A DNA stretch of 418 nt, taken from the NCBI RefSeq assembly GCF_003334405.1, contig NZ_QOWM01000066.1; one strand, written 5' to 3'. The position numbers were made by a program, and so were the translations under genes. The stretch is from Escherichia coli. GTDB taxonomy: Bacteria > Pseudomonadota > Gammaproteobacteria > Enterobacterales > Enterobacteriaceae. Position 1 is the first letter of the stretch. Each line of letters begins with the position of its first letter. The notes beneath the pieces were generated by a model that was given only the letters and a program-made list of their open reading frames with translations, did not search any database and was not told where the DNA came from. Positions 1 to 418 of this stretch are shown here, piece after piece.

Positions 1-30
1 ATACATGATCAAATACTCCTTACATAAATA

Positions 31-36
31 AGGTGA
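31..36 (+). promoter_or_regulatory. Shine-Dalgarno ribosome-binding site (AGGTGA) for the transposase start codon
   Basis: AGGTGA at 31-36 is followed by a 4-nt spacer (ACAA) and the ATG at 41-43, which is the start of the conserved MELKKL... N-terminus. Confidence 0.55.
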
Positions 37-40
37 ACAA

Positions 41-418
41 ATGGAACTTAAAAAATTGATGGAACATATTTCTATTATTCCCGATTACAGATAAGCCTGG
101 AAAGTAGAGCATAAATTGTCAGGCATCCTACTATTGACTATTTTTGCCGTTATTTCTGGTGCAGAAAGTTGGGAAGATATAGAGGATTTCGGGGAAACAC
201 ATCTCGATTTCTTGAAGCAATATGGTGATTTTGAAAATGGTATTCCTGTTCACGATACTATTGCCAGAGTTGTATCCTGTATCAGTCCTGCAAAATTTCA
301 CGAGTGCTTTATTAACTGGATGCGTGATTGCCATTCATCAAATGATAAAGACGTCATTGCAATTGATGGAAAAACGCTCCGGCACTCTTATGACAAGAGT
401 CGCCGCAGGGGAGCGATT
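41..418 (+). pseudogene. ISAs1-family transposase (H repeat-associated protein), N-terminal 125 codons, interrupted by an in-frame TAA at 92-94; 3' end lies beyond the window
   Basis: ATG at 41 with upstream SD. Frame 2 translates to MELKKLMEHISIIPDYR then TAA (92-94), then continues with no further stop through 418: [108 protein letters not shown]. Similarity to the family continues on both sides of the stop in the same frame, so this is a nonsense interruption and not a frameshift. After the stop the first in-frame ATG is at 320, which probably explains why the ORF track did not report this frame. If the TAA is a sequencing error this would be an intact CDS. Confidence 0.7.

Follow-up and report, generated by a model that had tools for sequence, protein, structure and literature searches.

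Identity and genomic setting

The window, by which we mean the whole 418-nucleotide stretch of DNA analysed here, is 100% identical to the 5' part of ybfL in Escherichia coli K-12 MG1655. Of 5426 complete E. coli genomes, 5207 have a match that covers at least 80% of the window, and identity is at least 99% in 2149 E. coli records, the best hits listed being 100% identical. At the RhsC locus of K-12, ybfL is the middle gene of three co-oriented ISAs1-type genes (ybfQ, ybfL and ybfD), which follow in this order downstream of rhsC-ybfB-(rhs tip)-ybfC, and RefSeq annotates it as 'ISAs1 family transposase, internal stop'. Positions are given below either for the window or for the K-12 locus (L001), in which the window occupies 6001-6418 and window base n corresponds to base 6000+n. 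The features discussed, with the evidence for each, are as follows.

1-40, plus strand: last 40 nt of a 143-nt untranslated leader, element positions 104-143 (inverted-repeat arms, homology among copies)
4-14, plus strand: -10-like region that takes in the GATC (Dam) site at 7-10, positional counterpart of the family motif TGATCTnAT (alignment of 13 leaders)
16-22, plus strand: 5' arm of a hairpin, CTCCTTA, an anti-Shine-Dalgarno (anti-SD) sequence (folds)
23-28, plus strand: hairpin loop, CATAAA (folds)
29-35, plus strand: 3' arm of the hairpin, TAAGGTG, with the Shine-Dalgarno (SD) region (alignment of copies, folds)
30-35, plus strand: weakened SD sequence, AAGGTG, with a 5-nt spacer to the ATG at 41
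41-418, plus strand: 5' part of ybfL, an ISAs1-family (ISEc1/H-repeat) transposase pseudogene (translation, NF033564, RefSeq annotation)
92-94, plus strand: in-frame TAA at codon 18, inactivating ybfL (translation, alignment of copies, RefSeq annotation)

The assignment to the ISAs1 family, which had been made from the sequence of the window by an earlier reader, is borne out by the curated model for DDE transposases of this family: NCBIfam NF033564 (transpos_ISAs1) scores 127.4 bits with the translation of window 95-418 and 412.4 bits with the intact paralogue YhhI, against a cutoff of 70. The triplet at 92-94 is TAA in ybfL and CAA (Gln) in ybfQ, ybfD, yhhI and ydcC, and ybfL is therefore a pseudogene. 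Its intact sisters yhhI (at RhsB) and ydcC (at RhsE), the second of which bears the RefSeq name 'ISAs1-like element ISEc1 family transposase', are elements of 1291 bp with CAGGG...CCCTG ends and encode a transposase of 378 amino acids. The element in the window is the ybfL copy of the H-repeat, H-rptC2/ISEc1, a catalogued member of the ISAs1 family that was already known. H-repeats in K-12 are always found downstream of rhs tip genes and are co-oriented with them. The H-rpt genes are transcribed and their transcripts increase in long-term stationary phase (PMC4032248), while transposition of H-rpt has, according to the literature, never been observed (PMC3032704).

Three H-repeat copies, C1, C2 and C3, are arranged in tandem at L001 5518-8143 (window about -482 to 2143). 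C1 (ybfQ, 5518-5897) is cut at element position 380 and directly abuts the left inverted repeat of C2 (ybfL); C3 (ybfD) begins right after the right inverted repeat of C2 at element position ~20-25, and hence has no left inverted repeat, and has lost internal sequence ahead of its own right end (8075-8143). Nested insertion was considered as the origin of this arrangement and rejected, given that C3 resumes at about position 20-25 and not at 381, and that no target duplications were found around the tandem copies. A change in the SD sequence from GGAG to GGTG (L001 6034 in ybfL, 5654 in ybfQ), together with a spacer 1 nt shorter, is common to C1 and C2 and absent from ybfD, yhhI and ydcC. C1 and C2 are therefore more closely related to each other than to any other copy, and a local duplication is suggested.

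Ends of the element and the place of the leader

A repeat search over L001 5400-8300 identified an inverted pair of 18 nt, CAGGGAAAGATCACGTAA at 5898-5915 and TTTCGTAATCTTTCCCTG at 7170-7187, in which 16 of 18 positions are complementary (left CAGGGAAAGATCACGTAA compared with right CAGGGAAAGATTACGAAA). The left arm lies at window -102 to -85, that is, 103 to 86 nt upstream of base 1, and both arms fall outside the window. Between the ends defined in this way the ybfL copy measures 1290 bp and holds one frame of 378 codons, with its right end 10 nt past the stop codon and the transposase ATG (window 41) at element position 144. The same limits are marked by homology among the copies yhhI, ydcC and ybfQ, which have unrelated flanks: it starts exactly at CAGGG, i.e. 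CAGGGAAAGATCA, and stops exactly at CCCTG, and the 103 nt upstream of window base 1 are 91-94% conserved among copies, divergence setting in only beyond CAGGG. The window therefore lies entirely inside the element, and no terminus falls within it.

The sequence-only reading had held that the end could not be delimited within the window, which is correct, and had allowed the left inverted repeat to lie either in bases 1-40 or upstream of them; the second place is the right one and the first is not. It had also named the observation that would speak against a terminus in the window, namely a left repeat, matching the right end, upstream of position 1, and this is what the locus contains. The expectation that had made bases 1-40 a candidate, that the ATG of ISAs1-family elements lies within about 100 bp of the left end, does hold for most relatives, in which the distance is 74-97 nt, but fails for ISEc1 itself, where it is 143-144 nt (143 nt in the ybfL copy); it is 173 nt in an E. 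coli plasmid element and 280 nt in a copy from A. caviae. Against a left terminal repeat in bases 1-40 stand the position of the inverted pair, the homology that continues for 103 nt upstream of base 1, the lack of any inverted copy of bases 1-40 near the right end and the absence of CAGGG from these 40 bases, and no ISEc1 copy was found in which homology to the others sets in within them; we give the idea practically no chance of being correct. The question of an IS end is thus answered clearly in the negative, the segment being leader sequence from the interior of an IS copy that is catalogued and inactive. As a by-product, which could help in annotating IS elements and in studying their regulation, the comparison fixes the ends of a number of ISAs1-family elements exactly, together with the lengths of their leaders.

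Members of the ISAs1 family in ISfinder are elements of about 1.2-1.5 kb with one long ORF, bounded by short terminal inverted repeats and flanked by a direct target duplication of 8-10 bp. The ybfL copy (1290 bp) and the yhhI and ydcC copies (1291 bp), each with one long ORF, fall within this size range. They also have the CAGGG-type inverted repeats, which recur in ISAs1, ISAeme2, ISPa60 and the E. coli plasmid element, and in Aeromonas, Vibrio, Glaesserella and several viral-contig copies; of the 13 elements compared, 10 have CAGGG at both their ends, and in three the right end differs by one base. The inverted-repeat search found no CAGGG pair in ISKpn9, and in ISKpn31 it found CAGGG on the left side (L004 568) with no matching right end. 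No matching 8-10-mers were present in the flanks of yhhI and ydcC, to the left of C1 or to the right of C3. Missing target duplications are expected for old, rearranged copies and are no argument against membership of the ISAs1 family.

Two relatives have peculiarities of their own. The A. caviae copy, with its 280-nt leader (L006 382-662), is 1441 bp long and has good inverted repeats of 29 nt, and its left repeat is separated from the conserved promoter-like element described below by ~190 additional nt. On a plasmid of V. navarrensis (L007 1853-2495), an ltrA gene, encoding a group II intron reverse transcriptase/maturase, begins 25 nt past the transposase stop codon and ~5 nt beyond the right end of the ISAs1-family element (CCCTG at 1848).

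Contents of the leader in ybfL

Window bases 1-40, atacatgatcaaatactccttacataaataaggtgaacaa, are richer in A+T than the window as a whole (72.5% versus 62%) and run directly up to the ATG at 41, and their description as an AT-rich leader preceding the transposase start was accurate. Scanning for consensus sigma-70 promoters returned no promoter-like site in bases 1-40, in agreement with the earlier remark that no convincing -35 is visible there; three sites were called in the window, all of them outside 1-40 and no more than shuffled sequence leads one to expect (1.8 +/- 1.4), and none was called in the full 143-nt leader of ISEc1. The sole promoter-like piece of bases 1-40 that is conserved in the family is TGATCAAAT at 6-14, which includes the GATC at 7-10 and can be read in two -10 registers, as TGA+TCAAAT (6-14, extended -10 type, 4/6) or as CATGAT (4-9, 4/6). 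ISEc1 has no -35 at 17 nt from this region, the hexamer in that place being TGTTTT. CATAAA at 23-28, which had been offered as a weak -10-like hexamer, was located correctly, but it forms the loop of the anti-SD/SD hairpin and is not the conserved promoter element.

In yhhI and ydcC the hairpin is a perfect pairing of CTCCTTA with TAAGGAG, with a folding energy of -8.0 kcal/mol (z -2.3 to -3.1); 2-5 of 200 dinucleotide shuffles fold as well, so that the intact ISEc1 hairpin surpasses 97-99% of them. In the ybfL copy an A-to-T change at position 34 sets T17 opposite T34, which introduces a mismatch into the stem and weakens the SD sequence, and where intact copies have TAAGGAG followed by a 6-nt spacer, ybfL has TAAGGTG and 5 nt. 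Its hairpin has an energy of -3.5 kcal/mol and a z of about 0, with 114 of 200 shuffles folding at least as well, and a second shuffle test gave P 0.17. Neither the leader nor the beginning of the gene has a match in Rfam. The putative control elements of the ybfL copy are vestigial: there is no -35, the stem is mismatched, the SD sequence is weakened and the frame is closed by TAA at codon 18. Bases 1-40 are the last part of the internal ybfL leader and carry the translation-initiation region, and they probably also hold decayed remnants of a promoter and hairpin.

Further downstream, within the transposase frame, window 189-207 contains a terminator-like stem-loop followed by a T-run (TCGGGGAAACACATCTCGA TTTCTTGAAG). 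One such structure was found against 0.1 expected in shuffles; its stem is short, with three G-C pairs, and it is probably coincidental.

A conserved promoter-like element in relatives

The comparison was extended to family members at 31-51% protein identity, from plasmids and viral contigs. About nine distinct lineages (ISKpn31, A. caviae, V. navarrensis, ISAs1, ISAeme2, L015, L016, L018/L049 and L019) share one architecture in the 60 nt before the ATG, which consists of TTGAnn, a spacer of exactly 17 nt that ends in TGA, TCTnAT, 0-3 nt, a hairpin in which an anti-SD sequence of the CUCC type pairs with the SD sequence of the 3' arm, 3-7 nt and the start codon. The -35 in eight tabulated lineages is TTGACC (four), TTGAAC (two), TTGATT or TTGACT (one each); the A. 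caviae copy, which has TTGACC, stands outside these eight and was added through the covariance model described below. When 13 leaders are aligned, T25, T28, C29, A32 and T33 are invariant and G26 and A27 are kept in at least 90%, while TGATC is retained, equally far from the hairpin each time, in 12 of the 13, among them ISEc1. The motif is absent from distant family members (Firmicutes/Bacteroidetes-like loci, L022-L061).

Because the invariant GATC lies across the -10, the second position of the latter has to be C, which departs from the consensus. Consensus sigma-70 scans of two relatives called no promoter in their leaders, just as none was called in that of ISEc1; the generic scan calls nothing because a C occupies a position at which a sigma-70 -10 nearly always has A. 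With the scans blank throughout the leaders, the reading of this motif as a promoter draws on its conservation only.

ISEc1 departs from the common spacing. At L001 5955-5965 (window -45 to -35) its leader reads AAAAATTGAGA, which resembles the -35 context of the relatives, AAATTTGACC, and the TTGAGA within it (L001 5960-5965) is 43 nt from the -10-like element, compared with 17 nt in the relatives. The ISEc1 leader as a whole is ~50 nt longer than those of most relatives. These distances weakly suggest that extra sequence, perhaps an insertion, split the ISEc1 promoter.

A second GATC is present in the left inverted repeat, at repeat positions 9-12, in 10 of 13 ISAs1-family elements (L001, L002, L003, L006, L007, L010, L011, L012, L016 and L018), the ISEc1 site being at L001 5906-5909 (window -94 to -91). 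None of the right repeats has GATC, their sequence at this place being GAGC, GATT or CCGC, and the ten elements with the left-repeat site are the same ten that have TGATC in the -10-like motif. To judge from this distribution, the two ends may differ in a Dam-dependent manner. The E. coli plasmid element with the 173-nt leader, also found on a viral contig (L005 611-650, L014 511-550), has a -10-like TCTAAT without TGATC and two GATC sites 20-35 nt upstream of it (ATGATCGATTTGTAGATCA); its anti-SD hairpin, ACCTCCA/TGGAGGT, is the best of the set.

The anti-SD hairpin and its covariation

A minimum-energy fold with the SD sequence in the 3' arm was obtained for ISEc1, ISKpn31, V. navarrensis, ISAs1, ISAeme2, ISPa60 and the E. 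coli plasmid element. MAFFT was unable to bring the arms of the hairpin into register, and a covariance model was seeded on four lineages. In 146 kb of sequence this model finds the remaining lineages only at the promoter-hairpin position, with E values from 1e-14 to 0.03. On the model alignment, 93.1% of cells in the helix pair, against 72.4% in shuffles (0 of 500 as high), six of the seven helix pairs change on both sides (2 of 500 shuffles), and the covariation score is 0.565 against 0.218 in shuffles (0 of 500); these counts come from an alignment fitted to the structure, and from lineages that share ancestry. When the partners of the helix are slid by 1-3 columns, pairing drops to 42-59% of cells. 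In a shuffle test in which the last 17 nt were held fixed and the upstream sequence was shuffled, P ranged from 0.017 to 0.07 per lineage, and the Fisher combination of these values, taken over lineages that are not independent, is 1e-4. Rfam has no family that covers the hairpin module, and no description of it was found in the literature searched.

A conserved helix with the SD sequence in one arm is therefore found in the relatives and in intact ISEc1. The ybfL copy has the T-T mismatch and does no better than chance, and the covariance model gave no match on the plus strand of the window; yhhI, which it matched on the homologous bases, scored no more than 1.7 bits (E 0.75 in 401 nt). Because the model has no significant match in ISEc1 or in the window, we do not claim bases 1-40 as a member of the promoter-hairpin module, and on the comparison of sequences the ybfL leader would be a positional remnant only.

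The complementary arms, CTCCTTA-N6-TAAGGAG, could also be understood as an operator in DNA, bound by the transposase or by a host protein, and not as an RNA structure. IS elements are commonly autoregulated at sites close to their promoters, and the palindrome directly follows the -10-like motif, a place from which a repressor could prevent transcription. The variation among relatives is of the wrong kind, however: G-U pairs, found at five of the seven helix positions, preserve an RNA helix and break a DNA palindrome, and so fit a structure in the sense-strand RNA. Moreover, what is conserved is the complementarity of the stem and the SD sequence, not the letters of the stem itself, and the 3' arm always coincides with the SD sequence. 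We consider an operator very unlikely.

A more serious alternative is that bases 1-40 are a mere SD leader, that the likeness of TGATCAAAT to a -10 and the palindrome have no regulatory role in ISEc1, and that transcription originates at a point farther upstream, with a promoter within the leader's first 100 nt and read-through out of rhs, ybfC or adjacent H-repeats as the possible sources. The absence of a sigma-70 consensus site from the 143-nt leader and of a -35 at 17 nt agrees with this, as do the non-significant covariance scores for ISEc1 and the constant position and orientation of K-12 H-repeats behind rhs tip genes. Binding of sigma-S RNA polymerase, weak and of low resolution, has been reported upstream of yhhI and ydcC, and the weak SELEX peak ~470 bp upstream of the yhhI start lies outside the element (PMC5493296). 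Yet TGATC is kept in ISEc1 as in nearly all the other aligned leaders, equally distant from the hairpin, and the intact ISEc1 hairpin, superior to nearly all of its shuffles, sits where the covarying hairpin of the relatives sits. On balance we regard this alternative as less likely than not, though with a better claim than the operator, and prefer to see in bases 1-40 the decayed promoter and hairpin described above.

A possible mode of transposase control

If the conserved architecture is functional, TTGACC-17-TGATCTnAT would be a weak sigma-70 promoter of the extended -10 type, situated within the leaders of the relatives. A transcript starting ~7 nt past the -10 is predicted to begin at the end of the 5' arm of the hairpin, near window 21. 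An mRNA made from this promoter would consequently be free of the anti-SD sequence and translatable, while read-through transcripts from flanking genes would carry both arms, fold and hide the SD sequence. Start of transcription at the element's own promoter, and within the hairpin, is what we infer from comparison among the leaders. The alternative -10 register in ISEc1, CATGAT at 4-9, counts against this mechanism, since the transcript would include the anti-SD sequence.

The GATC over the -10 would render the promoter sensitive to Dam methylation, as in IS10 and IS50, an idea favoured by the second GATC in the left repeat. In the window the GATC at 7-10 does lie inside the -10-like motif; no promoter is called there by the scan and ISEc1 has no -35. 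Taken together, the leaders point tentatively to a module, not previously described, in gammaproteobacterial ISAs1 elements, which would comprise a weak promoter with a Dam site, a Dam site confined to the left repeat and an anti-SD hairpin, and which in ISEc1 would be split by ~26 nt; we rate this as a real possibility, somewhat short of an even chance. Were it true, the ~26 extra nt between TTGAGA and the -10 could explain why transposition of H-repeats has not been seen.

Comparison with known systems

From H-rpt/ISEc1 (H-rptC2 = ybfL) the window does not differ, being that element, and from the intact copies yhhI and ydcC it is set apart by the TAA at codon 18, the weakened SD sequence and the spacer shorter by 1 nt. 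ISAs1 of Aeromonas salmonicida, ISAeme2, ISKpn31 and ISPa60 are alike in having a single DDE transposase gene, CAGGG-type inverted repeats, a length of 1.2-1.3 kb and, ahead of the ATG, a short leader in which anti-SD and SD sequences form a hairpin. The leader measures 86-87 nt in ISAs1, ISAeme2 and ISPa60, and 94 nt in ISKpn31 if the CAGGG at L004 568 is its left end, whereas ISEc1 has 143-144 nt. TTGAnn stands exactly 17 nt from TGATCTnAT in ISAs1, ISAeme2 and ISKpn31; ISPa60 is without the motif, and ISEc1 is without a -35 in that place.

The closest parallels to the proposed control come from IS10 and IS50. Sequestration of the ribosome-binding site in read-through transcripts of these elements was reportedly described by Davis, Simons and Kleckner in 1985 and by Schulz and Reznikoff in 1991. 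Their transposase promoters are weak and sensitive to Dam methylation (PMC4265352). There are also differences: IS10 and IS50 belong to the IS4 family and not to the ISAs1 family, no antisense RNA or inhibitor protein is evident in ISAs1-family elements, and the hairpin of the latter is local, 7 bp long and not formed with terminal sequences. The ISEc1 promoter, moreover, looks incomplete, and the control proposed for the ISAs1 family is a reading of sequence. By analogy, the likeness would lie in a GATC over the -10 of a weak promoter and in a hairpin that occludes the SD sequence only in transcripts started upstream. Our comparison therefore leads to a prediction, that the ISAs1 family is protected in the two ways in which IS10 and IS50 are, with transcription gated by Dam and with read-through transcripts kept from being translated, and that ISEc1 would be a decayed example of this.
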